DNA of 24,000 nucleotides from contig JAXGNP010000002.1 in NCBI GenBank assembly GCA_040767905.1, forward strand, positions 428,635-452,634, written 5' to 3'. A model generated the notes under the pieces. It had not been told where the DNA came from and made no database searches. It saw only the letters and a list, made by a program, of their open reading frames with translations. The DNA is from Syntrophorhabdus sp. Its GTDB lineage: Bacteria > Desulfobacterota > Syntrophorhabdia > Syntrophorhabdales > Syntrophorhabdaceae. This document shows positions 3,699 to 17,384 of the stretch, in pieces. Positions within the stretch are counted from its first letter, which is position 1. The number at the start of each line of letters is the position of its first letter. Made by a program: the position numbers and the translations under genes.

Positions 3699-3853
3699 AT
3701 CTCTGAAATAAATGAAAGCAATAGTATAATGCGAAGAAAAGAAATTATATTTATTCCTTCAGGCTGAGAAACATATAGGGGGCCCGGGTGGCTTCCCTTT
3801 ATGACCGTGTTCGCAGTTTCTCCGCCGTAATCCCACAATTTATCTCCCGGGAG

Positions 3854-3890
3854 TCCGGCGCGGAAATCCGCGGCCGGATTTTTTATTTTT
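3854..3890 (+). terminator. Intrinsic terminator inside the 5' leader (attenuator), directly abutting the RBS of the first operon gene
   Basis: The stem TCCGGCGCGG (3854-3863) pairs with CCGCGGCCGGA (3868-3878), giving 10 bp with one bulged G and an AAAT loop. It is followed by TTTTTTATTTTT (3879-3890), then GGGAGG (3891-3896) and ATG 3902. Confidence 0.7.
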
Positions 3891-3901
3891 GGGAGGTTTT
3901 C

Positions 3902-5182
3902 ATGTCAGATTACACACAAATGTGGACGGATTTGGGCCTTGATCTTAAGGCTCATGACGCGCTTCTTTCAGTCCTGGGTGGAGCGTATCAGGACATCTTT
4001 CTTTCTCAGAAGAATCGTCCCGAGGGAATGAAGTACTTCGACTTCGTTATGAGCGAAGTTCATGGCCTCAGGATTAAGGAACTCATGGATGCAAAGGCAG
4101 AGGGCCGCATCGTAGTGGGCTCCTATTGTGTTTTTGTGCCGGAGGAACTTATTCTTGCCGTAGATGGTGTTTCAGTTGGCCTCTGTGCCGGTGCAGAATT
4201 TAACTTTGAAGGTGCCGAAGAGGTAGTTCCCAGGAACCTTTGTCCGCTGATTAAATCAGCCTTCGGATTCAAGAGGGGTCTCGTGTGCCCATACGTTGAG
4301 GCGAGCGACATCATAGTCGGTGAGAATACTTGTGACGGCAAGAAAAAAGCCTATGAAGTTCTATCGCCTATGGTTAAGGACCTTTATATTATCGATCTCC
4401 CGCAGATGAAAAGCGAAACTGGTAAGATGCTTCTCAGGGAAGAGTACCGGAAATTCATAGCAAAACTTGAGGGCACAAGCGGAAAGAAGATCACCACTGA
4501 AACTCTGAAGAAAGGTGTAGAGATTACCAATGCAAAGAGAAAAGCTGTGAAGCGACTCGCAGAGCTGCGCAAGGCTGACCCTGCCCCCATTTCAGGTCTT
4601 GATGCTCTCCTCATAAACCAGGTCTTCTTTTACGATGATACGGTTCGATTTACTGCATCTGTAAACGCCCTTTGTGAAGAGCTTGAAGACCGCATTAAAA
4701 AAGGTATTGGCGTCTTCCCGAAGGGCACAACCCGCTTGCTAATTTCAGGATGTCCCATGGCAGTTCCCAACTGGAAGGTACCTTTCCTTGTTGAAACGAG
4801 TGGCGCTGTAATCGTAGGTGAGGAGTCGTGTGTAGGTGAGCGCGGTACGCAATGGCTCACCGAGGGGAAGGGGGATACTGTGGCTGAGCTTCTCGATGAT
4901 ATTACTGAACGATACTTCAAGATAGACTGTGCGGTGTTTACACCCAACCCATCGAGAACTGAACATGTAAGAGAGATGCATGGCAAAACAGGGGCTCAGG
5001 GAGTGATCCATTACAGCCTTCAGTTCTGTCATCCATACATAATCGAGAGCGGTCCTGCTGAGGCAGCACTCGAAAAAGCCAGCATCCCTACGCTGCGTCT
5101 TGAGACGGATTACAGCCAGGAGGATGCAGGCCAACTCAAGACCAGAATTGAGGCATTCCTTGAGAGGATTCAGGGAAAATGA
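3902..5182 (+). CDS. 2-hydroxyacyl-CoA dehydratase / double-cubane-cluster reductase family protein, paralog A
   Basis: 426 aa from ATG 3902 (GGGAGG RBS). Family-typical Cys motifs are GSYCVFVPEE, NLCPLIKSAFGF, ENTCDGKKK, ISGCPM, EESCVGE, IDCAVFTPN and LQFCHPY. It is followed by an activase gene with an ATGA overlap. Confidence 0.8.
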   Translation: MSDYTQMWTDLGLDLKAHDALLSVLGGAYQDIFLSQKNRPEGMKYFDFVMSEVHGLRIKELMDAKAEGRIVVGSYCVFVPEELILAVDGVSVGLCAGAEFNFEGAEEVVPRNLCPLIKSAFGFKRGLVCPYVEASDIIVGENTCDGKKKAYEVLSPMVKDLYIIDLPQMKSETGKMLLREEYRKFIAKLEGTSGKKITTETLKKGVEITNAKRKAVKRLAELRKADPAPISGLDALLINQVFFYDDTVRFTASVNALCEELEDRIKKGIGVFPKGTTRLLISGCPMAVPNWKVPFLVETSGAVIVGEESCVGERGTQWLTEGKGDTVAELLDDITERYFKIDCAVFTPNPSRTEHVREMHGKTGAQGVIHYSLQFCHPYIIESGPAEAALEKASIPTLRLETDYSQEDAGQLKTRIEAFLERIQGK

Positions 5183-5948
5183 GGGCAGCCGGGCTTGATA
5201 TCGGCTCCCGCACCGTGAAGCTTGCTGTCCTTGAAGAGGGCAAGGCAACTCATACGCGGAAAACCTTAACGTCTCACGATCCTTTAGGGGCTGTTCGTGA
5301 GCTTTCCAAGGGAGTTGATTATGATGTCTTAGTGGCTACCGGTTACGGAAGGCATCTTATCAAGGAGCACTTGGATTGCCCTGTCATTAGCGAGATCAAG
5401 GCCTTTGCCCTGGGGGCGAAAGCCATCCATCCGACCTGCAGGGTTATCCTCGATATTGGCGGACAGGACACAAAGGCAATTTGTTTGACGATACCGGTGA
5501 ATTAAGTAAATTCGAAATGAACGATAAGTGTGCTGCCGGCACAGGCCGTTTTCTTGAGATAATGGCTAACGCCCTCAATTATAGCCTCGACGAATTTTCA
5601 AAAGCGGCCTGTACTGCGCAGCGGGCCGAGAAGATCAACAGCATGTGCACAGTATTCGCCGAATCTGAAGTTATCTCTTTAACAGCGCAGGGAGCAAGGC
5701 GGGACGAAGTGGCTCTGGGTATCCACAAGGCTATCGTGAGCAGGTCTATTGCTCTCCTAAAGCGGATTGCCCCTTCCGGGGAAGTACTCTTTGCAGGAGG
5801 GGTAGCACTCAATGAATGCGTTCGTTCGTTGATAGCAGAGGAGCTTAAACGGCCTGTGATCGTTCCGCCCGACCCGCAGATCGTTGGAGCCCTTGGGGCT
5901 GCCCTTCAAGCGACCAGGTATTACGATAACATGGGGAGGATTACATGA
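5179..5948 (+). pseudogene. BcrAD/BadFG/HgdC-type ATPase activase (archerase), interrupted by a 1-nt frameshift near 5480
   Basis: The ORFs 5179-5505 (MRAAGLDIGSRTVKLAV...ILDIGGQDTKAI) and 5481-5948 (LFDDTGELSKFEMNDKCAAGTGRFLE...SMCTVFAESEV...FAGGVALN...PQIVGALGAA) together make one collinear activase. Both cluster-bridging Cys motifs are present. The frames join if one base is added in the TTT run 5480-5482. Confidence 0.85.
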
Positions 5949-7108
5949 ATAGAATATTGGAGCCTCTTATTGACGACCAATACACGGGAGAGCCGCCTTC
6001 CAAGCGAGTCCTGGCGTATCTACAGGCACAAAGGTCACAGGGGGCGAAAATTGTGGGGACCTACTGTGGCTATGCACCCATAGAGGTCATCCGGGCCCTC
6101 GACCTTGTGCCTGCGACCCTCTGCGCCTTCTCGAACGCCACAATAGAGGCCGCGGAAGCAATCCTCCCTGCGAACCTGTGCCCCCTCATTAAGTCAAGCT
6201 ACGGATTTATCGTAACGGATACCTGTCCCTTTTTCGGAATTTCTGATGCCGTGATCGCTGAGACGACGTGCGATGGAAAAAAGAAAATGTTCGAGCTTAT
6301 TGGTGATTATAAACCTTTGCACGTCATGGATCTGCCTCAGCTCCCTGATGAACCGGAAGCGCTTGAGAACTGGACAACGATGATCCACAAGCTGAAGGAA
6401 TTTCTCGAACGTATTTTCGAGCGTACCATTACTGACGACAGAATTGAACAAGCCATTCGAGACTCTAATGAGAAGGTTCGGAAAATGAATCAGGTTTTCG
6501 ACTATGTTGCGCTGGATCCTCCGCTGGTGGGATGGCAAGAGCTCTACGACATATTTTTTCTCGCACAGAGCGCTCGGGGGTCAGAAATGGTCCCTCTTTT
6601 CGATAGTATAATCAACAAGCTTGAGAGGAGGAAAAAAGATGGTTATGTCTACGGCCCGTCAGGGGCTCCCAGGGTGATGGTGACGGGCTGTCCCGTGTCG
6701 GGCGACGCATCAAAAGTGTTTCACGCTATCGAAGAGGCAGGAGGTGTAATTGTTGCCCTTGATATCTGCTCAGGCATGAAGCCTTATATGTCTCTTATAG
6801 AAGAAGGGACGGGCGAACCAATCCGGACACTCGCAGCTCATTATTTGCAGATACCGTGCTCATGCATGACGCCAAACGATCGCCGGCTTGTTGAAATGAC
6901 TAAGATTATCGAAAGGTTTAAGCCCGACGCTGTAGTAGATGTGATCTTACAGGCGTGCCATTCCTATAACATCGAGTCATTCAAGGTGGGCGAGCATATT
7001 CAGGAAAAACATGGTCTGTCTTTCCTTAAAATTGTGACCGACTATTCTCAAAGCGATGTAGGTCAAATAAGAACAAGGGTGGAAGCACTACTGGAGATAT
7101 GTAAATGA
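5945..7108 (+). CDS. 2-hydroxyacyl-CoA dehydratase / double-cubane-cluster reductase family protein, paralog B
   Basis: 387 aa. Motifs are GTYCGYAP, NLCPLIKSSYGF, TDTCPFF, ETTCDGKKKMFEL, VTGCPV, ICSGMK, IPCSCMTPN and LQACHSYN. RBS GGGGAGG. ATGA overlap with the activase stop. Confidence 0.8.
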   Translation: MNRILEPLIDDQYTGEPPSKRVLAYLQAQRSQGAKIVGTYCGYAPIEVIRALDLVPATLCAFSNATIEAAEAILPANLCPLIKSSYGFIVTDTCPFFGISDAVIAETTCDGKKKMFELIGDYKPLHVMDLPQLPDEPEALENWTTMIHKLKEFLERIFERTITDDRIEQAIRDSNEKVRKMNQVFDYVALDPPLVGWQELYDIFFLAQSARGSEMVPLFDSIINKLERRKKDGYVYGPSGAPRVMVTGCPVSGDASKVFHAIEEAGGVIVALDICSGMKPYMSLIEEGTGEPIRTLAAHYLQIPCSCMTPNDRRLVEMTKIIERFKPDAVVDVILQACHSYNIESFKVGEHIQEKHGLSFLKIVTDYSQSDVGQIRTRVEALLEICK

Positions 7109-7159: not shown

Positions 7160-8272
7160 ATGTTTAGAAATCTGAAGTCGGCTTTGATTACGGTTGTTGG
7201 GTTCGTTATTTTATCGTTCGCTTCCGGTGTTTATGGGGCAGATATTCCCGCCATGAAAGTGGGTTATATTTTTACCACCCACCACACACCATTTATGGTG
7301 GCAGCACAAAAAGGTGAAGCTCTCAAATCCATGGGAGTGTATCTCAAACCGGTTGTCGCCAAGGACAAGTATGAGTTAATAGTAGATGGCAAGCCGATAG
7401 CAACGCTCCAGTTGATTGTGGCAAAAAGCGGAACGGAAACCGCCTCGCTTTTCGCACGAAACCAGCTCGATCTTGCTATGGCTTCTGTTACAGCCATGAT
7501 AGCCGCAATCGACAAAGGGACAGCAATAAAAATACTGAGTCCCCTTCAAACGGAGGGAATGGGTCTTGTTGTGGCAAAAGATTCTCCCCTTGTCAACTGG
7601 GAATCGTTTATGGCCCATATCAAAAAGGCCGGTAAGCCAGTAAAAATAGGATATCACTCTCCCACGAGCGCCCCGAAGATAATCCTTGAAGGGTCGCTGA
7701 AACAGTCAGGGATACGGGTGACTGAAGACCCCAATGATCAGTCGGCCCAGGTCTTGCTTGCCGACCTGAAAGAAACGACGAACTTGATCCCTGCTCTTAC
7801 CAGCAGGCAGGTCGAAGCTGTTGTCGGGCCATCGCCTTTCCCGGAGGTTGCTGTCAGTCGTGGTGTAGGCAAGATTGTGGTGGAGCTCCGCGACCTTCCC
7901 CCCAAGGGGTATTGGCATGATTTTCCCTGCTGTGTCACCGCGGCCACCGATGCAACCATCTCCAAACACCCCCATGTAGTGCAAAAATTCATAGAACTTA
8001 TCGCCAAGACCAACGCATGGTGCAACAAGAACAGACTTGAGGCCGGTACATTAACCGCGGAGTGGATTGGACTTCCCCCTGAATCAGCCCAGGCATCAAC
8101 ATTGGTTTACCTGCCAAAATTCACCGCGCAATGGATGAAAGGCGCCAATGAGTATCTGACCATTCTCGATCAAATGGGAAAATTTACCGGAAAAATGAAA
8201 GGAAAAACAATCAACGATGTAAGGCCGGTTCTATTCGACATGCAATTTATTGACAGAGTGAAAATACAATGA
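7160..8272 (+). CDS. ABC transporter substrate-binding protein, NitT/TauT (NMT1/SsuA-like) family, secreted
   Basis: 370 aa. Signal peptide MFRNLKSALITVVGFVILSFASGVYG/AD. Overall SsuA/TauA-like layout, followed by a cognate permease and ATPase. Contains a vicinal Cys pair (HDFPCCVTAA). RBS AGGAGG. Confidence 0.75.
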   Translation: MFRNLKSALITVVGFVILSFASGVYGADIPAMKVGYIFTTHHTPFMVAAQKGEALKSMGVYLKPVVAKDKYELIVDGKPIATLQLIVAKSGTETASLFARNQLDLAMASVTAMIAAIDKGTAIKILSPLQTEGMGLVVAKDSPLVNWESFMAHIKKAGKPVKIGYHSPTSAPKIILEGSLKQSGIRVTEDPNDQSAQVLLADLKETTNLIPALTSRQVEAVVGPSPFPEVAVSRGVGKIVVELRDLPPKGYWHDFPCCVTAATDATISKHPHVVQKFIELIAKTNAWCNKNRLEAGTLTAEWIGLPPESAQASTLVYLPKFTAQWMKGANEYLTILDQMGKFTGKMKGKTINDVRPVLFDMQFIDRVKIQ

Positions 8273-9111
8273 ATGTAAGAAATATACTCTTAAGGACAGG
8301 TGCTTATATAACTGTACCGGTCCTTTTCTTAGCTTTTTGGGCCTTCATGGCATGGCACATGAAAAATGAGGTCATCCTGCCCAGTGTCGGGCAGGTGGCC
8401 CAGCTTTTCATGGAACCAACCAAAAGCCTTATAGCCATGGGCCCTCTCACCACAAATGTTGCCGTTAGTCTTGTGCGCGTTCTGTCGGGTTATCTCCTTG
8501 CGGTTTGCCTCGCCGTGCCGCTGGGGATTCTTATGGGATATTACGGGACGGTCTTCAGGCTCATGAATGGTTTCCTTGCCATGTTCAGGCCAATCCCCCC
8601 TCTTGCATGGGTGCCATTGGTGCTTGCCTGGTTTGGAATTACGAGCTTTGCAACACTTTTTGGCGTGGAAAGGGGGTATGCGTATCTTTATCTCAATAAC
8701 CTGAAGTTCTCTATGATTTTTATTATCTTCATAGGGGCTTTCTATCCTATTTTGACGAGTGCGATACACGGGGTCATGAGCGTGCGGAATACCCTTTTGG
8801 ACTCAGCAAGGGTTCTTGGAGCCAGCGAGTGGGACATTTTTCGGAAAATTCTCTTGCCGGCATCTTCTCCTTCAATTGTTAACGGTATGAGGATCGGCCT
8901 GGGAGTAGCATGGATGTGCCTTGTATCAGCAGAAATGCTTCCCGGGAGTCTCTCCGGTGTGGGCTATCTTATTACCCACGCGTACACGCTCGCACGAACA
9001 GATATTGTCATAGCAGGCATGATCAGTATTGGAGTCATAGGCGCTTTCCTGGACCTATTCTTCCGACTCGTCGAAGATCGCAAGTTCGTCTGGACGAGAT
9101 TGACCCGATGA
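8269..9111 (+). CDS. ABC transporter permease, NitT/TauT family
   Basis: 280 aa and multi-TM. The EAA-loop region is DSARVLGASEWDIFRKILLPASSPSIVNGMRIGLG. ATGA overlap with the SBP stop. Confidence 0.85.
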   Translation: MNVRNILLRTGAYITVPVLFLAFWAFMAWHMKNEVILPSVGQVAQLFMEPTKSLIAMGPLTTNVAVSLVRVLSGYLLAVCLAVPLGILMGYYGTVFRLMNGFLAMFRPIPPLAWVPLVLAWFGITSFATLFGVERGYAYLYLNNLKFSMIFIIFIGAFYPILTSAIHGVMSVRNTLLDSARVLGASEWDIFRKILLPASSPSIVNGMRIGLGVAWMCLVSAEMLPGSLSGVGYLITHAYTLARTDIVIAGMISIGVIGAFLDLFFRLVEDRKFVWTRLTR

Positions 9112-9923
9112 AGGAGTATCCCATACTCCGCGTCCAGTCCCTTCGCAAGTCCTTTAGGACAAACGACGGAGGAGCCCTTGAGGCAGTGGCAGAGGTCAGC
9201 TTCGAAATTCCCGAAAATGACTTTGTGTGCATCGTGGGACCATCGGGATGCGGAAAGTCAACATTGCTGAGAATGATCGCAGGCCTCGAGACAATCAGTA
9301 CCGGAGAAATAGACTACCGGGGAGAGATAGTCTCACGGCCGCGGAAAGAAATCGGTATGGTCTTCCAGGAATACTCCCTTCTGCCGTGGAGAAATGTGAT
9401 TGACAATGTCGCACTTGGTCCTGAATTCTCGGGTGTGCCGCTAAATGTGCGGAAAGAGAAAGCCATGGAGTACCTGCGCCTTGTCGGAATGGAAGCTTTT
9501 TCACAGTCTTTTCCCCATGAACTTTCGGGAGGCATGAGACAACGTGTTGCCATTGTCAGGGCCCTTGCCAATGACCCGGACGTGCTTCTCATGGATGAAC
9601 CTTTTGGCGCACTCGATGCCCATACAAGAATCCTGCTGCAAAAAGAATTGCTTCGTATATGGGAACACCACCGTAAGACGATCCTCTTCGTAACCCACGG
9701 TGTCGATGAGGCTATATATCTTGCGGACCGCATTATGGTTATGTCTGCACGACCTGGCAAGATTCTCGAAATCATTGATGTGGACATGGCCCGACCGAGA
9801 CACCGGGGAGACCCTGCCTATGGCCAACTGGCAGATCAGATTCTCGCAATCCTCGAGCAGGAGGCCGTATTTTCCTTTGGTAATGGAACTGAAAGACGAT
9901 GCCTGAATCATTTCAATGAATAG
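9108..9923 (+). CDS. ABC transporter ATP-binding protein, NitT/TauT family
   Basis: 271 aa from ATG 9108 (ATGA overlap with the permease stop). Walker A GPSGCGKST, signature LSGGMRQR, Walker B LLMDEPFGALD. The track's start at 8910 lies inside the permease gene. Confidence 0.9.
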   Translation: MKEYPILRVQSLRKSFRTNDGGALEAVAEVSFEIPENDFVCIVGPSGCGKSTLLRMIAGLETISTGEIDYRGEIVSRPRKEIGMVFQEYSLLPWRNVIDNVALGPEFSGVPLNVRKEKAMEYLRLVGMEAFSQSFPHELSGGMRQRVAIVRALANDPDVLLMDEPFGALDAHTRILLQKELLRIWEHHRKTILFVTHGVDEAIYLADRIMVMSARPGKILEIIDVDMARPRHRGDPAYGQLADQILAILEQEAVFSFGNGTERRCLNHFNE

Positions 9924-11853
9924 TTATCAAAAGAACATAGTAGTTGGAACTGCTGGTCATGTTGGCCATGGGAAAACAACACTGATTAAAGCCCTCACAG
10001 GAACCGATACAGACCGTTTGAAAGAAGAAAAAGAAAAAGGGATGACAATTGAACCTGGATTTACAAGTCTGCAACTTCCTTCCGGCAATGTCATTTCAAT
10101 TGTGGATGCACCTGGCCATGAACGATTTATCAAAAACATGCTGAGAGGCATATCCGGAGTAGACATTGCCATCCTTGTTGTAGCATCAGACGCGGGAGTG
10201 ATGCCCCAAACTCGCGAACATCTTGATATCTTGAGGCTATTAAATATACGACATGGCTTTATTGTGCTGTCGAAGATTGATCTTGTAGATGAAGAAATCA
10301 TAGGTATGGCACATGAAGAGGTGCGAGACTTTGTGAAAGAAACCTTTCTTGAGAACACACCCATAATCCATTTCTCTGCCAAAACAGGTCATGGTCTTGC
10401 AGAGATAAAACAGACTGTGGAGGACATATCCAGACATGTTATACAGAAAGACCAGCACGGAATATTCCGTCTCCCTATTGATCGGGTTTTCACTATGCCA
10501 GGTTATGGAACAATAGTGACTGGTACGGTTATATCAGGACGGATACGTAAAGGTGATGCTGTGGAAATCTATCCTATCGGAAAACTAACCACGGTCAGAA
10601 ATATTCAGATTCACGGTAAGTGGGCGGGCGATGCAGCAGCGGGCAATAGAGTAGGCCTGAATCTATCCGATGTGAGGATGGAAGAACTTGAAAAAGGGAT
10701 GGTTGTTGGTGAACGACAATCTCTGCTTTTGACCAATGTAGTGAATGCGAAACTCCACTATCTGCAATCAAACCCATATCATCTTAATAGTATAGCCGAG
10801 GTTAAACTCTATTCGGGAACTTACGAAGTAGTTGCCCGATCAATACTTATGAATAAAGAAAAAATTCTTCCAGGTGAAAGCTGCTTTATACAAATGAGAT
10901 TAGAAAATAGTTTCGCCCTTCTTCCTTACGATAGATATATTCTCAGAGCCCTAAACCCCGTGAGCACAATTGGCGGCGGTATAATTTTGGAGGTTGATCC
11001 GGAGAAATATCTATCTTCACGCCCTGAATCAACTGAACATCTTCAACTACTGGAAAGGAAAGTCATTCATGAGATGGTGGAGGCATCGGTCAAAAAGGAA
11101 AGGCTGGCATCGTTCAAGACTCCTGATTTGGCTAAGAAACTCCATGTGGGTCAAACAGAAATCGATGAGGCGTGTAATCACTTATTAAGAGAAGGCAGGG
11201 TTTTATTCACAGAGGATGGTTCTGTGATCCATAAAGAATCCCTTATCTGTTTGGAAAAAGAAATACTGGAGGAGATTGCAGGCTTTCATGAGAGCCATCC
11301 CGATCAAAAAGATGCCTCTCAGGAGGAAATCCGTATAAAGATTTCCCCCTCCTTAAACCAAAGAGTATATGAGACTATCCTTCAAGACCTTAAGAATAAG
11401 AAAGAAATAGACATCAACAAGGGAAGAATCAAACTGTTTGGATTCCAGGTGACATTAAGTAAAAAACAAAAACAGATTTATGATCATTTAGAGGAAATTT
11501 GCAAATCGTATCACTTTAGGCATCTACCCTCGAATGTTCTGCAGATGCTGAAGGATTCCTACGGAGAAAAAGAAGTAGAAGGCGTATTAAGGGTTATGAT
11601 TGGCGAGGGAAGGCTGATCAAATTGAACAATCGCCGATTTATTCATTCAGATGCCATTGAGGATGCAAAAAAAGTTATACGAAATCATATCGAGCAAACG
11701 GGTCAGGTTGCTCTGAGAGAGTCTATGAAGTTATTTGGAGTAGGCCGGCCTCAAGTCCAGCCCATCTTTGATTATCTTGATTCAATACGGTTTACCATGA
11801 GAATAGGAGATTATAGGGTTTTATATAAGAGCAAGGAGAGTGAATATGTCTGA
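9916..11853 (+). CDS. selB: Selenocysteine-specific translation elongation factor SelB
   Basis: 645 aa. G-domain motifs are GTAGHVGHGKTTL, DAPGHERF and LSKIDL. It has the beta-barrel domains and a long C-terminal winged-helix extension of the length typical for bacterial SelB. The ATG overlaps the ATPase gene by 8 nt. Confidence 0.9.
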   Translation: MNSYQKNIVVGTAGHVGHGKTTLIKALTGTDTDRLKEEKEKGMTIEPGFTSLQLPSGNVISIVDAPGHERFIKNMLRGISGVDIAILVVASDAGVMPQTREHLDILRLLNIRHGFIVLSKIDLVDEEIIGMAHEEVRDFVKETFLENTPIIHFSAKTGHGLAEIKQTVEDISRHVIQKDQHGIFRLPIDRVFTMPGYGTIVTGTVISGRIRKGDAVEIYPIGKLTTVRNIQIHGKWAGDAAAGNRVGLNLSDVRMEELEKGMVVGERQSLLLTNVVNAKLHYLQSNPYHLNSIAEVKLYSGTYEVVARSILMNKEKILPGESCFIQMRLENSFALLPYDRYILRALNPVSTIGGGIILEVDPEKYLSSRPESTEHLQLLERKVIHEMVEASVKKERLASFKTPDLAKKLHVGQTEIDEACNHLLREGRVLFTEDGSVIHKESLICLEKEILEEIAGFHESHPDQKDASQEEIRIKISPSLNQRVYETILQDLKNKKEIDINKGRIKLFGFQVTLSKKQKQIYDHLEEICKSYHFRHLPSNVLQMLKDSYGEKEVEGVLRVMIGEGRLIKLNNRRFIHSDAIEDAKKVIRNHIEQTGQVALRESMKLFGVGRPQVQPIFDYLDSIRFTMRIGDYRVLYKSKESEYV

Positions 11854-12058
11854 ATTGATCAATGCGAAAGGGCTTGGTTGTGCCGAGCCGGTAATTTTGG
11901 CAAAAAAAGCACTTGATTCACTGGATGAAATCACCATTGTGGTTAATGAGGCTACAGCCATGGAAAACCTCAGGACTTTAGGGACTTACTTAGGATGTTC
12001 GGTAAAGGTTACCACAGAGGCTAATTGCATCCACACGGTTTACTTCAGAAAAAAATAA
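11846..12058 (+). CDS. YedF/TusA(SirA)-like small sulfur/selenium carrier protein, variant CAEP motif
   Basis: 70 aa from ATG 11846 (AAGGAG 7 nt upstream), overlapping the selB stop by 8 nt. The sequence INAKGLGCAEPVILAKKAL...ITIVVNEATAMENLRTL matches the YedF N-domain pattern (DarGl.CP.PV...vdn..a.eNv) but has CAEP instead of CPxP. Confidence 0.7.
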   Translation: MSELINAKGLGCAEPVILAKKALDSLDEITIVVNEATAMENLRTLGTYLGCSVKVTTEANCIHTVYFRKK

Positions 12059-12255
12059 AGGGTAAATGTTACTATGAATCTGCTCACTAATGTTCATCTA
12101 TTGCAGTTCATCATATGTTTTGCCCTTAAACATGATTACTACCTGAAACTCAGCCTGAAAAAGTCTGGTCAAGATAAAGCTACAAGTAAAGGTATTAAAC
12201 GTTCAATAGATAGAGGTTTTTTATAATTTGTTTGTTTATCATAGAAATAATCGAT

Positions 12256-12284
12256 TTGACTTATATGGTTAATGAATTTATATT
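12256..12284 (+). promoter_or_regulatory. Candidate sigma70-type promoter for the yedE-selD block
   Basis: TTGACT (12256-12261), a 17-nt spacer, then TATATT (12279-12284). It lies in a 268-bp AT-rich spacer, 43 nt upstream of the yedE ATG. Confidence 0.45.
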
Positions 12285-12326
12285 CAATACGGTTTTTTTC
12301 TTAAAAAAAATACGAAGGAAGACCTT

Positions 12327-13421
12327 ATGCCAAAGATCGCACAGTTTTTTTCGAGTCGTTGGGGAATCATTTTAGTAGGCGTTATTATTGGGGTTTTTGC
12401 CCAGCTCTTGCAGAAGTGGGGCAACCCGGCAAACATGGGCATCTGCGTAGCGTGCTTCGAACGGGACATTGCAGGCGCTTTGGGAATCCATCGGGCTGCT
12501 GTGGTCCAATACATGCGGCCGGAAATCATCGGTTTTGTCCTTGGTTCGCTGATTGCCGCTTACGCGTTTAAGGAGTTCAGATCGCGGGTTGGGTCTGCTC
12601 CAATCGTTCGTTTTATCCTCGGCACCTTCGCCATGATTGGGGCACTGGTCTTTTTAGGGTGCCCGTGGCGGGCTGCACTTCGTCTGGCTGGCGGTGACTG
12701 GAACGCAATCTTTGGTCTCCTCGGGCTTATCGGTGGGATATGGGTTGGCACATTCTTTCTCAAAGCGGGTTTCAACCTTGGTCGGACACAGGCTACCCAT
12801 ACCTCGGTTGGGTGGTTATTGCCGTTGACAATGCTGGGTTTTCTCATTCTTATGTTTATCTTCCCCCAAGTGCAGGGACAGGACAAGAGTGGCATCCTGT
12901 TTTACAGCGTCAAAGGCCCCGGCTCTATGCACGCCCCATTGATCGTTTCACTGGTTATTGGACTTTTTATCGGATTCCTTGCACAGAGAAGCCGGTTCTG
13001 CACCATGGGAGCAATTAGGGATCTCATCCTGTTCAGACAACCCCATCTCCTTACCGGGTTCGTCGCACTTGTTGTGGCTGCCTTTGTTACTAATTTGATT
13101 CTGGGACAGTTTCACCCCGGCTTCGTTAAGCAACCCGTGGCCCATACAATGGGGCTCTGGAATTTCGGCGGCATGGTCCTGGCAGGTTTAGCTTTTGCCC
13201 TGGCAGGAGGCTGCCCTGGACGGCAGCTGTTTTTAGCCGGAGAGGGCGACGGGGATGCGGCGGTGTTTGTTTTTGGGATGATCTTCGGAGCAGGTATTTC
13301 GCATAACTTCGGGTTGGCCAGCTCGCCGGATGGTGTCGGGCCATACGGGATTCCCGCTGTAATCATAGGTCTTCTGGTTTGCCTTTTCATCGGGTTTACG
13401 ATGAGGAAACAAGTTGCCTAA
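12327..13421 (+). CDS. yedE: YedE-family selenium metabolism membrane protein (putative Se transporter)
   Basis: 364 aa and polytopic. It has the two family-typical half-repeat Cys motifs, NMGICVACFERDIAGALG and SRFCTMGAIRDL. It sits in the classic yedE-yedF arrangement. Confidence 0.85.
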   Translation: MPKIAQFFSSRWGIILVGVIIGVFAQLLQKWGNPANMGICVACFERDIAGALGIHRAAVVQYMRPEIIGFVLGSLIAAYAFKEFRSRVGSAPIVRFILGTFAMIGALVFLGCPWRAALRLAGGDWNAIFGLLGLIGGIWVGTFFLKAGFNLGRTQATHTSVGWLLPLTMLGFLILMFIFPQVQGQDKSGILFYSVKGPGSMHAPLIVSLVIGLFIGFLAQRSRFCTMGAIRDLILFRQPHLLTGFVALVVAAFVTNLILGQFHPGFVKQPVAHTMGLWNFGGMVLAGLAFALAGGCPGRQLFLAGEGDGDAAVFVFGMIFGAGISHNFGLASSPDGVGPYGIPAVIIGLLVCLFIGFTMRKQVA

Positions 13422-13448
13422 AGGTTATTTAAAGAAGGAGGAATTACA

Positions 13449-13667
13449 ATGAGTGTAATCGTCGATGCCAGAGGGCTATCATGTCCGCAACCAGTTCTTT
13501 TGACCGTGAACGAAATTAAAAAGGTTGTAAAGGGTGAAATCGTTGTTCTTGTTGACACGGACACATCCAAGGAGAATGTTTCCCGCATAGCAGTTTCGCA
13601 GGGGTGGACGCTAAAAGGGGTCGAGCCGGATGGAACCGGATATCGCATTAGTATTGCAAAGGATTGA
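13449..13667 (+). CDS. yedF: YedF / TusA-like selenium metabolism protein (SirA domain only)
   Basis: 72 aa. VDARGLSCPQPVLLT carries the canonical CPxP motif, followed by VVLVDTDTSKENVSRIA. RBS GAAGGAGG. It lies immediately downstream of yedE. Confidence 0.8.
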   Translation: MSVIVDARGLSCPQPVLLTVNEIKKVVKGEIVVLVDTDTSKENVSRIAVSQGWTLKGVEPDGTGYRISIAKD

Positions 13668-13670
13668 TTC

Positions 13671-14225
13671 ATGTCTTTGTTGGGGTTTTTAAAAAAAAAT
13701 CAGAAGGAACTTGAGCTCAGGGAAGATATAGACCGCGGCTTTATGGTCTTTGAAAATACCAGCGAAGTGATTCAGGCTGATAACCTTCTGAAAAAAAATG
13801 GTTGGGAGATTCGGGTTATGGGGCCACCGCCGGAGATTCGAACAGGGTGTGACCTTGTCATCGAGTTCCCGCTCATTGAAGAGCTGAAAATCATAAAGAT
13901 TTTGCAGGATGCCGAAATACCGCCCCTTCAGGCAGTACCTGTTACCGGTCCCTTATTACAACCGGTAGGCCTCTTCAAGGTCAAAGATTTTGGCAGGTAT
14001 CTGATGGTACGGGCAGCCAACATGAAACTGACCGTTGACACGGAGTCACTCATCATTGTGAACATTTCCGGAGGCGGTTGTCCGGATGTTCCCTACCTTG
14101 CCGAGGAGATGGTAGGCAAGCATCTCAATGAAGCTCCGAGCCCGCGGGAGATCGGACATACCCTGTGTGGCTATGCCCTTCAATTGGCCTACGAAGAGGT
14201 AAAACAACGATGCTTGCAGTCGTAG
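13671..14225 (+). CDS. DUF3343 (putative Se/S carrier) domain protein with an unassigned C-terminal Cys-containing domain
   Basis: 184 aa. The N-terminal roughly 75 aa (FMVFENTSEVIQADNLLKKNGWEIRVMGPPPEIRTGCDLVIEF) fit the DUF3343 pattern (ferredoxin-like, P.P..i...CG.). I do not recognise the C-terminal roughly 100 aa (NISGGGCPDVPYLAEEMVG...HTLCGYALQLA). Confidence 0.65.
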   Translation: MSLLGFLKKNQKELELREDIDRGFMVFENTSEVIQADNLLKKNGWEIRVMGPPPEIRTGCDLVIEFPLIEELKIIKILQDAEIPPLQAVPVTGPLLQPVGLFKVKDFGRYLMVRAANMKLTVDTESLIIVNISGGGCPDVPYLAEEMVGKHLNEAPSPREIGHTLCGYALQLAYEEVKQRCLQS

Positions 14226-15073
14226 GCACCGTCCCCGAGAATGATTTTCCATTACTTGCGGGAAAAGTCACCCTTGAAAATGGAAATATTGTCATTCAGG
14301 GGAAAAGGGTTAATATAAACCGTGGCACGCCAGCATTGCTCGCTGCTGCTGCCAAAGCTTCGGAGACATTGCAGCAGGAAGAGCCTTTTGGGTATTTGAT
14401 AGGGGATATCGGTCGCGGCGATGGCAGTAAAAAACTGTATCAGTATCTCGTAGAGCACCTCAAGAAAACCAGTTTTCATACCATGGCTTTTCATTATCTG
14501 CAACCCCTTGTCGATTGGCACAACCGAATTCTTGCAATCATCACAAAAATGATTCCGAAGCCGGTTCTCATCGCCGATGCGGGATCCATGTATATGGCGA
14601 AAATGAGTGGGAAATCAGCGGCCTATGATCTTTTCACGCCGGACATTGGAGAGCTTGCATTTCTTGCGGACGAAGCGGCCCCTCACCCGTTTTACACGCG
14701 AGGGTTTATTTTGCACGAAGAACAGCATGCACCCGATCTTATTGCCAGGGCATACGCCCACAGGAATGCCTCAGAGTACCTTCTGGTTAAGGGTAGTAAG
14801 GATTATATAGTGAACAGTGAAGGCGTACAGGACATTGTCGAAAGCCCCGTTGAAGAGTCAATGGAAGCCATAGGCGGAACCGGCGATACCCTTACTGGTA
14901 TTGTCGCTGCGTTGTGTGCAGCCGGCATAAGCGTGAAGGAAGCGGCTATCCTGGCAGCGCGGACAAATCGATTGGCAGGATCGTATGCGCATCCAACCCC
15001 TGCAACCCAGGTGATGGAAATAATCCGATATATACCCAAAGCGCTAAACGTTTGCATGAGAAAAGATCAATGA
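14210..15073 (+). CDS. NnrD/YjeF_C-like carbohydrate-kinase-fold (ribokinase superfamily) protein, function unknown
   Basis: 287 aa from ATG 14210. The sequences VLIADAGSMYMA...LFTPDIGELAFLA...YLLVKGSKDYIV...EAIGGTGDTLTGIVAALCAAG parallel the NAD(P)HX dehydratase layout (DADal...TPH.gE...LKG...GsGDvLaG). It overlaps the upstream gene by 16 nt and shares an ATGA with selD. Confidence 0.6.
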   Translation: MLAVVGTVPENDFPLLAGKVTLENGNIVIQGKRVNINRGTPALLAAAAKASETLQQEEPFGYLIGDIGRGDGSKKLYQYLVEHLKKTSFHTMAFHYLQPLVDWHNRILAIITKMIPKPVLIADAGSMYMAKMSGKSAAYDLFTPDIGELAFLADEAAPHPFYTRGFILHEEQHAPDLIARAYAHRNASEYLLVKGSKDYIVNSEGVQDIVESPVEESMEAIGGTGDTLTGIVAALCAAGISVKEAAILAARTNRLAGSYAHPTPATQVMEIIRYIPKALNVCMRKDQ

Positions 15074-16134
15074 AAGAAAAGAAGACTCCACGACTAACAG
15101 AAACGGTTAAGGGCGCCGGCTGAGCATCGAAGCTGGGTCCGGGCGACCTAGATAAGGCTCTGTGCGGTCTTTCCCTGATGAATGATCCAAACCTGATTGT
15201 TGGAATGGATAGGGCCGATGACGCCGGGGTATACAAAATCTCGGAAGATCTTGCGCTTATTCAGACGGTTGATTTTTTTACCCCCATTGTAGATGATCCT
15301 TATATGTTTGGCCAGATTGCGGCTACCAACTCGCTCAGCGATGTCTACGCCATGGGAGGTCAACCTTTGACAGCAATGAATATCGTCTGTTTTCCCATAA
15401 AGACGATGGACATATCAGTATTAAGGGAGATCCTGCGAGGAGGACTCGATAAGATGAAGGAGGCAGGAGTTACCCTGGCGGGAGGGCATAGCGTCGAAGA
15501 TTCAGAGCTGAAGTACGGGCTTTCCGTTACTGGAATCATCCACCCTTCCCGGGTGCTGACCAATGTAGGGGCAGAACCAGGGGATAAGCTGATCTTAACC
15601 AAACCGCTTGGCACCGGAATCATCAATACCGCTATAAAGGCTGGAATGGTAGATGAAGGGCTGGCCGAAAAAGTCATACGGTCTATGGCTCACCTGAATA
15701 GATCCGCTGCAGAAGTAGTGCAGGAGGTAGGTGCCCGAGCCTGCACCGATGTCACCGGATTTGGCCTTCTGGGTCATGCCTTTGAAATGATTCAGGGAAC
15801 AGGGAGGGGTATCATCATCTACGCATCCCAGGTCCCTTTATTTCAGGAGGCTGTTAGCTTTGCAGAAATGGGCCTGGTTCCTGGAGGTGCCTATCGCAAC
15901 AGAGATTTCAGGATTCATCAGGTTGATATTGATGCTGATGTATCACGGTATCTTTCGGACATCTTTTTTGATCCTCAAACATCCGGGGGTCTGCTCATTG
16001 CAGTACCAGAGGAAAAGGCAAATAGAATGGTAAAAAGATTAAAGGAAAAGGGCATAGATGAAGCGGCAATTATTGGAGAGATCACAGATGAACCAAAAGA
16101 AAGAATTATCGTTCGGCTTTCCGGGAAAAAATAA
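15070..16134 (+). CDS. selD: Selenide, water dikinase SelD (selenophosphate synthetase), selenocysteine-containing form (UGA at 15121-15123 = Sec18)
   Basis: Reading from ATG 15070 gives [45 protein letters not shown].... This reproduces the conserved SelD N-terminal GAG(U/C).K.GP.DL motif. The track ORF (15178-16134) is only the part after the UGA. The rest is collinear AIR-synthase-like SelD (DDAGVYKI, DFFTPIVDDPYMFG, GGHSVED). Confidence 0.9.
15122..15160 (+). promoter_or_regulatory. SECIS-like stem-loop immediately 3' of the selD UGA
   Basis: The upper stem CTGGGTC (15133-15139) pairs with GACCTAG (15145-15151), giving 7 bp with one G-U. The apical loop is CGGGC, placing G residues about 20 nt after the UGA. 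A possible lower stem is GAGC (15122-15125) with GCTC (15157-15160). Folded by eye only. Confidence 0.55.
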
Positions 16135-16238: not shown

Positions 16239-17384
16239 ATGAAGCTACTGATTAACGACAAATACACGAACAATCCAAATGACAGGGTGTTGGATTCCGT
16301 TATCTATAAGAGAAATATCGGGGCGCCCGTTATCGGCATGTACTGTGGGTATGCGCCTGTTGAGTTAGTCCGGGCGATGGGGGCAGTGCCGATTTTCTTG
16401 TGTTCTTTTTCCAGAAAGACCATCCCGGCAGCTGAGGCGGTCCTTCCCTCCAATCTTTGTCCTCTCATTAAATCGAGCTATGGATTCATCATTACAGATA
16501 CCTGTCCTTTTTACGCCCTATCTCAGGCAATCATCGGCGAGACAACTTGTGACGGCAAGAAGAAGATGTTCGAACTGATCAGTCACATCAAACCTACCCA
16601 TATCATGGACCTTCCACAACTCCCCGACGAAAAGGAAGCCCTTGAAAACTGGACGATCATGGTTCGTAAGTTAAAAAATTGGCTTGAGAAAACCTTTGAA
16701 ACACAGATCACCGATGGACTAATCGAGACAGAGATTAAAGATACAAATCGGAAGAACCGTCTTATGAATGATTTTTTCAAGTATGCTGCCCATTTTCCTC
16801 CAATAATCAGTTGGAGTGAACTGTACGATATAATTGGGCTGGAACTCGTGTCGAATAGCGATGAGTTACAGAGACTCCTGGAAGATATCACGCAAAAACT
16901 GGATGAGCGTATCATTGAGGGAGAATACATTGGTACAATAGAATCACCGAGGGTTATTGTAAGTGGATGCCCGGTTGGGGGTGATGCATCGAAGATTTTC
17001 AGGGTTATCGAAGAAGCTGGCGGGGCAGTGGTGGCTATAGAGGCGTGCAGCGGTATGAAGGGGTATACAATAAAAATTGAAGAAGATACCGGCGACCCCC
17101 TTTCTGCTCTTGCAAAAGCTTATCTACAAATACCATGCTCTTGCATGACGCCGAATCAACGGCGTTTCGATGCATTGGATGAATTAATTGCGCGGTTTAA
17201 ACCCGATGCAGTTATTGATGTCATTCTTCAGGCTTGTCATTCGTATAATATAGAATCCTACAGAATCGAACATCACGTGCACGAAAAACATAATTTACCA
17301 TTTTTAAAGGTGGAAACAGACTTCACGGAAAGTGACCGCGCAATGATCAAAACCCGCGTGCAAGCCCTCTTTGAAAGCATTTGA
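16239..17384 (+). CDS. 2-hydroxyacyl-CoA dehydratase / double-cubane-cluster reductase family protein, paralog C
   Basis: 381 aa. It is collinear with paralog B from the first residues, and more than half of the positions I aligned by eye are identical. Shared motifs are GMYCGYAP, NLCPLIKSSYGF, TDTCPFY, ETTCDGKKKMFEL, VSGCPV, ACSGMK, IPCSCMTPN and LQACHSYN. Confidence 0.8.
   Translation: MKLLINDKYTNNPNDRVLDSVIYKRNIGAPVIGMYCGYAPVELVRAMGAVPIFLCSFSRKTIPAAEAVLPSNLCPLIKSSYGFIITDTCPFYALSQAIIGETTCDGKKKMFELISHIKPTHIMDLPQLPDEKEALENWTIMVRKLKNWLEKTFETQITDGLIETEIKDTNRKNRLMNDFFKYAAHFPPIISWSELYDIIGLELVSNSDELQRLLEDITQKLDERIIEGEYIGTIESPRVIVSGCPVGGDASKIFRVIEEAGGAVVAIEACSGMKGYTIKIEEDTGDPLSALAKAYLQIPCSCMTPNQRRFDALDELIARFKPDAVIDVILQACHSYNIESYRIEHHVHEKHNLPFLKVETDFTESDRAMIKTRVQALFESI

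Follow-up and report, generated by a model that had tools for sequence, protein, structure and literature searches.

How trace selenium is specifically acquired and then safely delivered to selenophosphate synthetase (SelD) is an open question, and the proteins implicated so far, YedE, YedF, and DUF3343, have been known since 2015 only as candidates from comparative genomics. A 24,000-nucleotide (nt) stretch of DNA from Syntrophorhabdus sp. (GenBank assembly GCA_040767905.1, contig JAXGNP010000002.1, positions 428,635 to 452,634 of the forward strand; hereafter, “the window”) gives this question a new form, as it carries a gene for a ribokinase-fold protein (hereafter, “the kinase”) between a gene for a DUF3343-containing carrier protein and selD (Table 1). 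What is an enzyme of this fold doing among predicted selenium carriers? With moderate confidence, we propose that the kinase serves as the catalytic, nucleotide-dependent subunit in a module that acquires and traffics selenium upstream of SelD.

The closest partner of the kinase is the carrier. This protein is twice the usual length of DUF3343 proteins, and its C-terminal half belongs to DUF8182 (Pfam ID PF26554). It contains three cysteines, namely, Cys60 in the DUF3343 domain and, in DUF8182, Cys137 (in the GGGCPDVPYLA motif) and Cys166 (in GHTLCGYALQLA), all of which are invariant in all 87 to 97 loci that were aligned. These loci come from a census that included 80 metagenome loci (59 to 94% identity) as well as genome and exact-match loci (individual loci are referred to by L numbers); the screen was a tblastn search with the proteins of this window only, and 11 distinct loci were annotated. 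The carrier gene is found directly upstream of the kinase gene in all 72 loci with enough upstream sequence. In 87 of 89 loci, the stop codon of the carrier gene lies beyond the kinase start, the overlap being 13 or 16 nt in 73 of them and 4 to 7 nt in 12. Furthermore, about 40 protein clusters, with lengths of 470 to 590 amino acids (aa), represent natural PF11823-PF26554-PF01256 fusions. Their sources include Mailhella-type Desulfovibrionaceae and “Candidatus Adiutrix,” where they are encoded within yedE-tusA-fusion operons. A structural model of one of these fusions is compact, with a predicted template modeling score (pTM) of 0.87 and a well-ordered linker; Foldseek searches with this model returned matches for the kinase domain only and none for the carrier domains.

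The GGGCPDVP motif of DUF8182 resembles the G-x-x-CP-x-P motif of TusA. As a TusA-like domain, however, DUF8182 had to be rejected: hhalign aligned a 16-column motif only, with a probability of <1%, and the four-strand β-meander seen in the fusion model contradicts a TusA fold as well. An hhalign comparison of DUF8182 with the N-terminal DUF3343 domain gave no signal of an internal duplication in the carrier. A possible selenocysteine (Sec) at position Cys181 of the carrier in locus L049 proved to be a plain TGA gene stop inside an ATGA overlap.

Beyond this pair, the module is less uniform. YedE and TusA are encoded ahead of the carrier-kinase pair in 51 of 53 loci, and the two exceptions (L044 and L040) reflect a deletion that fused the YedE N terminus to DUF8182. 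In L044 (positions 4399 to 4728), as also in L040, the YedE N terminus (…LQKWGNPGNM) runs in frame into DUF8182, the C-terminal half of the carrier. This variant lacks yedE, tusA, and the DUF3343 domain and retains the kinase gene together with the downstream selD and yedF. The TusA cysteine is invariant in 94 of 94 loci. Distant members (35 to 50% identity) retain the core: Chloroflexota-type loci have the order LysR / yedE - carrier - kinase - tusA (- selD), and Desulfovibrio piger (CP189842.1) and another 2.5-Mb genome each carry a stand-alone yedE-tusA-carrier-kinase operon. SelD is the commonest further neighbor, albeit not a constant one. It is encoded at most 60 nt downstream in 11 of 59 loci, at most 2.5 kb downstream in 19 of 48, and within ~8 kb in 13 of the 19 loci with long flanks, and in 4 loci it lies upstream of yedE. 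A double-cubane-cluster reductase gene takes its place downstream in 8 of 48 loci, and neither gene is found in 22 of 48. The reductase/activase pair directly follows the kinase gene in those 8 loci and also in L007, L010, L095, and L100.

Two individual loci deserve separate mention. The L095 genome (GCA_002309415.1) encodes two carrier-kinase pairs, the second of which (positions 11592 to 14040) is 40% identical and adjoins a YedE-like (Sulf_transp) transporter that is split into two half-size genes; this second pair may be a paralogous system for another substrate. In L020, yedE has a TGA codon at about position 774, where other loci encode the conserved Cys40 (GICVAC to EI*VAC), so this YedE may contain Sec.

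An earlier, sequence-only reading of the window had noted tight coupling to selD and suggested on that basis that the kinase has a selenium-related role belonging to neither the canonical Sec pathway nor the selenouridine pathway. The adjacency to selD is indeed not unique to this genome. Nevertheless, selD is usually absent within 7 to 8 kb in the D. piger, Mailhella-type, Chloroflexota-type, and Syntrophales loci, and the neighborhood census that the same reading had called for identified the DUF3343-DUF8182 carrier as the invariant neighbor. The conserved functional partner of the kinase is therefore the upstream three-cysteine carrier, followed by TusA and the selenium-type YedE as the next most constant ones, rather than selD. 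Given the adjacency, the gene overlap, and the fusions, as well as the divergent loci that lack YedE or selD, the irreducible unit consists of the carrier and the kinase, with TusA nearly always and YedE usually present.

The suggested noncanonical role linked to selenium has gained support. The YedE partners in the window and in five divergent loci belong to the TIGR04112 (seleno_YedE) family, with scores of 405 to 493 bits, and fall far under the cutoffs for the thiosulfate transporter TsuA. SelD is strongly enriched beside the module in the local neighborhoods, and the same in-frame stop codon (Sec) is present in each of the 45 SelD genes that neighbor the module in related loci. SelB is encoded in the window and near the module in L007/L008, L062, L063, and L079, and genes for YedF (TusA plus DsrE; TIGR03527) and for Sec-lyase-like proteins recur in these neighborhoods. 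In two Chloroflexota-type loci, the divergently transcribed LysR gene passes the model for the selenium metabolism-associated LysR (NF040786) with 258 and 271 bits against a cutoff of 250. Finally, in Methanococcus maripaludis, yedE expression rises ~5 log2-fold under selenium starvation (PMC11097638). Together, these data favor selenium over sulfur and are best read as pointing to a selenium-linked function apart from the canonical Sec and selenouridine routes. The association is a local one, based on the enrichment of SelD, SelB, and LysR_Se around the module.

Several observations weigh against assigning the module to selenium or to a defined step in its handling. Deletion of yedE in M. maripaludis caused no clear selenium phenotype (PMC11097638), and TusA, DUF3343, and YedE-like proteins also serve sulfur trafficking, as described for the YTD cluster and in the TsuA literature. 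In four divergent loci, those of D. piger, the Mailhella type, and two others, the operon is isolated, and the surrounding 7 to 8 kb contain no selenium gene; the Syntrophales locus L100 has the carrier-kinase-tusA-yedF arrangement without yedE. In addition, the substrate-binding half of the kinase has no characterized relative, so the chemistry proposed below is a guess.

Part of this evidence would also fit a sulfur module, in which YedE-like channels would bring in thiosulfate or zero-valent sulfur, persulfide would pass along TusA and DUF3343, the kinase would serve sulfur assimilation or sulfur-energy metabolism, and the selD neighbors would reflect nothing but the shared chemistry of the two elements. 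Besides the documented roles of TusA, DUF3343, and the YedE/YeeE families in sulfur transport and relay and the stand-alone operons, it can be noted that the hosts are all sulfur-metabolizing anaerobes and that the second carrier-kinase pair of L095 adjoins the divergent split Sulf_transp gene. However, every YedE partner tested scores as seleno_YedE and not as TsuA, SelD is enriched beside the module and SelB is near it in several loci, the LysR in two loci passes a selenium-associated equivalog, and the YTD cluster has a different composition (DsrE and hypothetical proteins), with no kinase mentioned for it. This makes the sulfur module an unlikely explanation, even if it survives better than the other two.

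Is the kinase, then, an enzyme at all? The gene itself is well defined. Its open reading frame begins with ATG at position 14210, behind a Shine-Dalgarno sequence (AAGAGG, positions 14194 to 14199), and ends with TGA at positions 15071 to 15073. The initial Met is shared by 39 homologs in the alignment, which rules out the alternative start of a longer frame at GTG 14165. The 16-nt overlap with the carrier gene (stop codon TAG at positions 14223 to 14225) and the ATGA shared by the kinase stop and the selD start (positions 15070 to 15073), which the sequence-only reading had pointed out for this 287-aa frame, are confirmed by the coordinates. A sequence search yielded more than 4,800 homologs, the best with E = 2e-179, so the frame is not a chance one. 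That reading had also listed three motifs in the order known from NAD(P)HX dehydratases. The order holds, as do GGTGDTLTG (residues 222 to 230, within AIGGTGDTLTG at 220 to 230) and TP..GE (FTPDIGE, residues 142 to 148), whereas the purported LKG is really LLVKG (residues 191 to 195), the literal string LKG being absent. The kinase thus has the complete GGxGDxLxG anion-hole motif with the predicted catalytic Asp (D226).

Among family members that share 28 to 65% identity, the invariant or nearly invariant positions include G39, D66, H95-Y96, D123-A124-G125, K131, P144-D145, and E148 and, further on, H159-P160, K194-G195, D198, E219, G222-G223-T224-G225-D226, and N253-R254, which correspond to the conserved motif set TPDxGE, VKGxxD, ADAG, HY, and GGTGD. 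The last of these (G222 to D226) is invariant in both alignments, that of 26 diverse members and that of 39 fusion proteins. The kinase has no conserved cysteine. Judging from these alignments, conservation in the nucleotide and anion-hole half extends to NnrD and ThiM, and the substrate half is family specific and strongly constrained, a pattern that one would predict for an active enzyme working on another substrate.

This pattern bears on the possibility that the kinase is a noncatalytic or regulatory nucleotide sensor, that is, an ATP- or ADP-binding gate or scaffold for loading or unloading of the carrier that phosphorylates no substrate. Such a role would suit a protein whose obligate pairing or fusion partner is a carrier and not a metabolic enzyme and that, in the annotated loci, is not consistently accompanied by genes of a small-molecule pathway. 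However, even members that are only 28 to 40% identical share the catalytic Asp and the complete anion hole without exception, along with many charged residues of the substrate half (D66, H95, D123, K131, D145, E148, H159, K194, D198, and E219), a degree of conservation that is more typical of an active enzyme. We therefore consider a sensor role improbable and treat the kinase as a likely enzyme.

Which enzyme family does it belong to? The comparison with carbohydrate kinase and YjeF_C models proposed earlier gave PF01256 (Carb_kinase) as the best Pfam match, at 52.6 bits against a gathering score of 27. The alignment is limited to kinase residues 117 to 272, which correspond to positions 93 to 237 of the 242-position profile; the N-terminal 92 profile positions are unmatched. 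The impression that the N-terminal ~90 residues do not resemble a standard NnrD was accordingly correct, with the first 90 to 115 residues lying outside the match. On the NnrD equivalog TIGR00196, the kinase scores 43.9 bits, far under the cutoff of 129.85, and although all 26 diverse members match this model (best E = 2.9e-14), none comes near the cutoff. Nor does the kinase reach the cutoffs of the ThiM models NF006830 and TIGR00694; on the former it scores 30.8 bits against 180, and 18 of the 26 members match weakly (~31 bits). A filter-only HMMER/phmmer search of 1.84 billion 50%-identity representatives retrieved only 349 sequences at E ≤ 1e-3, of which many are fragments. With so few representatives and scores so far under the TIGR00196 cutoff, the kinase family is, by these measures, compact and discrete and not a fringe of the very large NnrD family.

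The AlphaFold2 model of the kinase, built with 40 homologs, has a predicted local distance difference test score (pLDDT) of 88.5 and a pTM of 0.90 and displays the three-layer α/β/α ribokinase fold, with an extra three-strand β element in the N-terminal half (approximately residues 16 to 35). Foldseek comparison with the Protein Data Bank (PDB) returned 201 matches at E ≤ 1e-3, all of them ribokinase-like (ThiD, NnrD, PdxK, and PfkB) and with template modeling (TM) scores of 0.5 to 0.6, placing the kinase at about equal distances from ThiD, NnrD (TM0922 and YxkO), PdxK, and the PfkB sugar kinases. At the sequence level, the best phmmer match to a solved structure had E = 0.02, and the family profile placed the ThiM structure 3DZV (E = 6e-7) ahead of NnrD (E = 1e-4), with alignment limited to the C-terminal 100 residues. 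The original label “NnrD/YjeF_C-like” is therefore right as to the ribokinase superfamily fold with its GGTGD motif and too specific beyond that, as the protein is about equally near ThiM, ThiD, PdxK, and NnrD and widely misses TIGR00196. We regard the kinase as a new functional variant inside the ribokinase superfamily. That it would be an ordinary ADP/ATP-dependent NAD(P)HX dehydratase (NnrD) that sits beside selenium genes by chance or through coexpression is effectively excluded, for all that PF01256 is its best Pfam match, that its motifs come in the NnrD order, and that some sources name it “NAD(P)H-hydrate dehydratase,” by the missed TIGR00196 cutoff in 26 of 26 diverse members, the match to only the C-terminal 60% of the Pfam profile, the discreteness of the family, the lead of ThiM over NnrD in the PDB profile search, the near-universal synteny with or fusion to the cysteine carrier, and the absence of YjeF_N/NnrE from the genes called in the 11 annotated loci (for the remaining loci, the screen used the window proteins only, and YjeF_N was not searched there), a picture that differs from that of an NnrD found with NnrE irrespective of selenium genes.

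We return to the proposal that the kinase is the catalytic subunit of a selenium module. This module would comprise the YedE importer, the TusA-type carrier, the three-cysteine DUF3343-DUF8182 carrier, and the ribokinase-fold enzyme, the last two acting as a stoichiometric complex. The three invariant cysteines of the carrier, with a fourth one on TusA and none conserved in the kinase, suggest a division of labor in which the carrier handles the thiol chemistry and the kinase the nucleotide chemistry. We infer that the kinase binds ATP or ADP and uses it at the GGTGD anion hole, with Asp226 as the catalytic residue, for phosphoryl transfer. This step would process or trap a selenium species that enters via YedE and is held on the carrier thiols, and the selenium would then become available to SelD, whose acceptor residue in the window would be Sec18. 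The kinases ThiM, ThiD, and PdxK trap imported small molecules, and NnrD activates a hydroxyl. By analogy with these, our preferred guess is that the kinase would phosphorylate an oxygen atom of the selenium compound being imported, or of a small cosubstrate, and so create a leaving group for attack by a carrier cysteine.

A bolder version of this scheme, which we offer only tentatively, is that the kinase and the three-cysteine carrier provide the missing energy-dependent step of a dedicated bacterial selenium assimilation pathway: ATP- or ADP-driven activation of YedE-imported selenium (e.g., by phosphorylation of a selenium oxyanion or of a cosubstrate), capture of the selenium on protein thiols as perselenide, and delivery to the Sec-containing SelD. 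If true, an enzyme would be acting on a selenium substrate in a way not recognized before, and selenium uptake would for the first time be connected to SelD by a defined pathway. Short of that, the kinase family adds an enzyme with a recognizable catalytic site to a candidate selenium pathway formerly seen as a passive carrier chain and offers a new, testable candidate for the hand-over of selenium to selenophosphate synthetase. It also shows that the “DUF3343” partner is here a longer, three-cysteine protein and defines a compact operon of three or four genes. As this operon is also present in D. piger, a named species whose genome is completely sequenced, the proposal is directly testable. 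In public databases, members of the kinase family are listed as “sugar kinase,” “NAD(P)H-hydrate dehydratase,” or “hypothetical protein,” and thousands of entries with one of the first two names are probably misnamed.

The arrangement of the module in the window is given in Table 1, along with the other features discussed here. The only sizeable intergenic gap, of 270 nt, lies ahead of yedE and holds the best promoter-like match of the region. It is a possible, weak candidate for the start of a yedE-tusA-carrier-kinase-selD transcript, as promoter-like sites overall are not above shuffled expectation. The N terminus of SelD (...TETVKGAGUASK) has the in-frame TGA at the catalytic Cys/Sec position (equivalent to Cys17; Sec18 here). 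An Rfam scan of the window gave no matches, and thus neither a riboswitch in the yedE leader nor a selenocysteine insertion sequence (SECIS) family, and the hairpin after the UGA codon of selD is no better than shuffled sequence (z = -0.13).

The selenium genes of the window are surrounded by three paralogous double-cubane-cluster anaerobic reductases (NF040772, 440 to 450 bits) and one BcrAD-type activase, which may together form a low-potential reductase for a selenium species. The activase is split into two overlapping frames, which match positions 2 to 122 and then 124 to 271 of the Pfam profile; L007 and L008 have it as one undivided gene of 250 aa, and the split in the window stems from a frameshift or sequencing error or else marks a pseudogene. 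An association of double-cubane reductase and activase with selenium genes has also been noted in Slackia (Lin et al. 2015, PMC5322559). The region of the window that separates the double-cubane genes from selB encodes an NMT1/SsuA-like ATP-binding cassette (ABC) transporter (binding protein, permease, and ATPase), and a similar transporter is encoded beside the module in L010.

Table 1. Features of the window, in order of position, and the LysR genes of two related loci
Feature	Position	Strand	Remarks
Double-cubane-cluster reductase	3788-5182		NF040772
BcrAD-type activase	5179-5948		Overlapping frames 5179-5505 and 5481-5948
Double-cubane-cluster reductase	5945-7108		NF040772
NMT1/SsuA-like ABC transporter	7160-9923		Binding protein, permease, ATPase
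selB	9916-11853		End overlapped by the second small TusA/YedF-like gene
Second small TusA/YedF-like gene	11840-12058		Overlaps selB end by 14 nt
Promoter-like site	12256-12284	+	10/12 consensus matches; in 270-nt gap upstream of yedE
yedE	12327-13421	+	Putative selenium transporter; first module gene; TIGR04112 (seleno_YedE), 491 bits (cutoff 200)
tusA/yedF-type small carrier	13449-13667	+	72 aa; Cys12 in CPxP; PF01206, 61 bits
Carrier gene	13671-14225	+	184 aa; DUF3343 (PF11823) + DUF8182 (PF26554); stop overlaps kinase start by 16 nt
Kinase-fold gene	14210-15073	+	287 aa; ribokinase superfamily (Carb_kinase/YjeF_C-like); member of discrete orphan family
selD	15070-16134	+	Selenophosphate synthetase; TIGR00476, 368.8 bits; Sec codon TGA 15121-15123
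Double-cubane-cluster reductase	16239-17384		Downstream of selD; NF040772
LysR_Se gene, locus L093	5221-6114		Divergent from yedE-carrier-kinase-tusA operon; NF040786
LysR_Se gene, locus L094	5364-6275		Divergent from yedE-carrier-kinase-tusA operon; NF040786

Literature searches on DUF8182, on DUF3343, on YedE, and on selD together with a kinase found no description of the kinase family and no mention of DUF8182. The nearest known systems each share part of the picture. NnrD/YjeF_C proteins (PF01256 and TIGR00196; Bacillus subtilis YxkO, PDB entries 1KYH and 3RPH, and Thermotoga maritima TM0922, 2AX3) provide the best Pfam and NCBIfam matches of the kinase and have the same ribokinase-like fold, with GGTGDTLTG, the (V/L)KG strand, and TPxxGE in the same order. 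In contrast to NnrD, the kinase has N-terminal residues 1 to 116 that are off the profile and include the extra β element, and the resemblance amounts to a TM score of ~0.6 and a sequence E value of 0.02; moreover, its family always comes with the cysteine carrier, paired or fused, and no YjeF_N partner or fusion was seen in the 11 annotated loci. One source consulted for the comparison (PMC4231035) lists no NnrD active-site residues. The vitamin-salvage kinases ThiM, ThiD, and PdxK likewise share the fold, with ThiM (3DZV) as the best profile-to-PDB match and ThiD (1JXH and 1UB0) as the top Foldseek matches. However, ThiM has Cys at the catalytic position where the kinase has Asp, and thiamin or B6 genes are not found near the kinase.

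On the side of transport, the TsuA/TsuB (YeeE/YeeD) thiosulfate uptake system and the YTD (YedE-TusA-DsrE) cluster are built, like the module described here, around a YedE/YeeE-type channel and a TusA-type cytoplasmic carrier. They differ in that the cited sources mention no kinase-fold component and no DUF3343-DUF8182 carrier, and their transporters fall in other NCBIfam models. With regard to selenium, the closest precedents are the YedE/YedF/DUF3343 candidates of Lin et al. 2015 (PMC5322559) and the selD-overlapping genes ranked in the preprint by Kayrouz et al. 2022 (10.1101/2022.04.13.486033), which include selA, selU, TIGR04348, yedF, DUF3343, and others. The kinase is not mentioned by Lin et al., the word “kinase” is absent from one supplementary file of Kayrouz et al., and neither source lists the kinase-fold protein or the DUF8182 extension of DUF3343. 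Both share with the present analysis the neighborhood logic and the partner families (YedE, YedF/TusA, DUF3343, and LysR_Se), and the genes for 2-hydroxyglutaryl-coenzyme A dehydratase-like proteins and their activases recur in their neighborhoods just as they do here.

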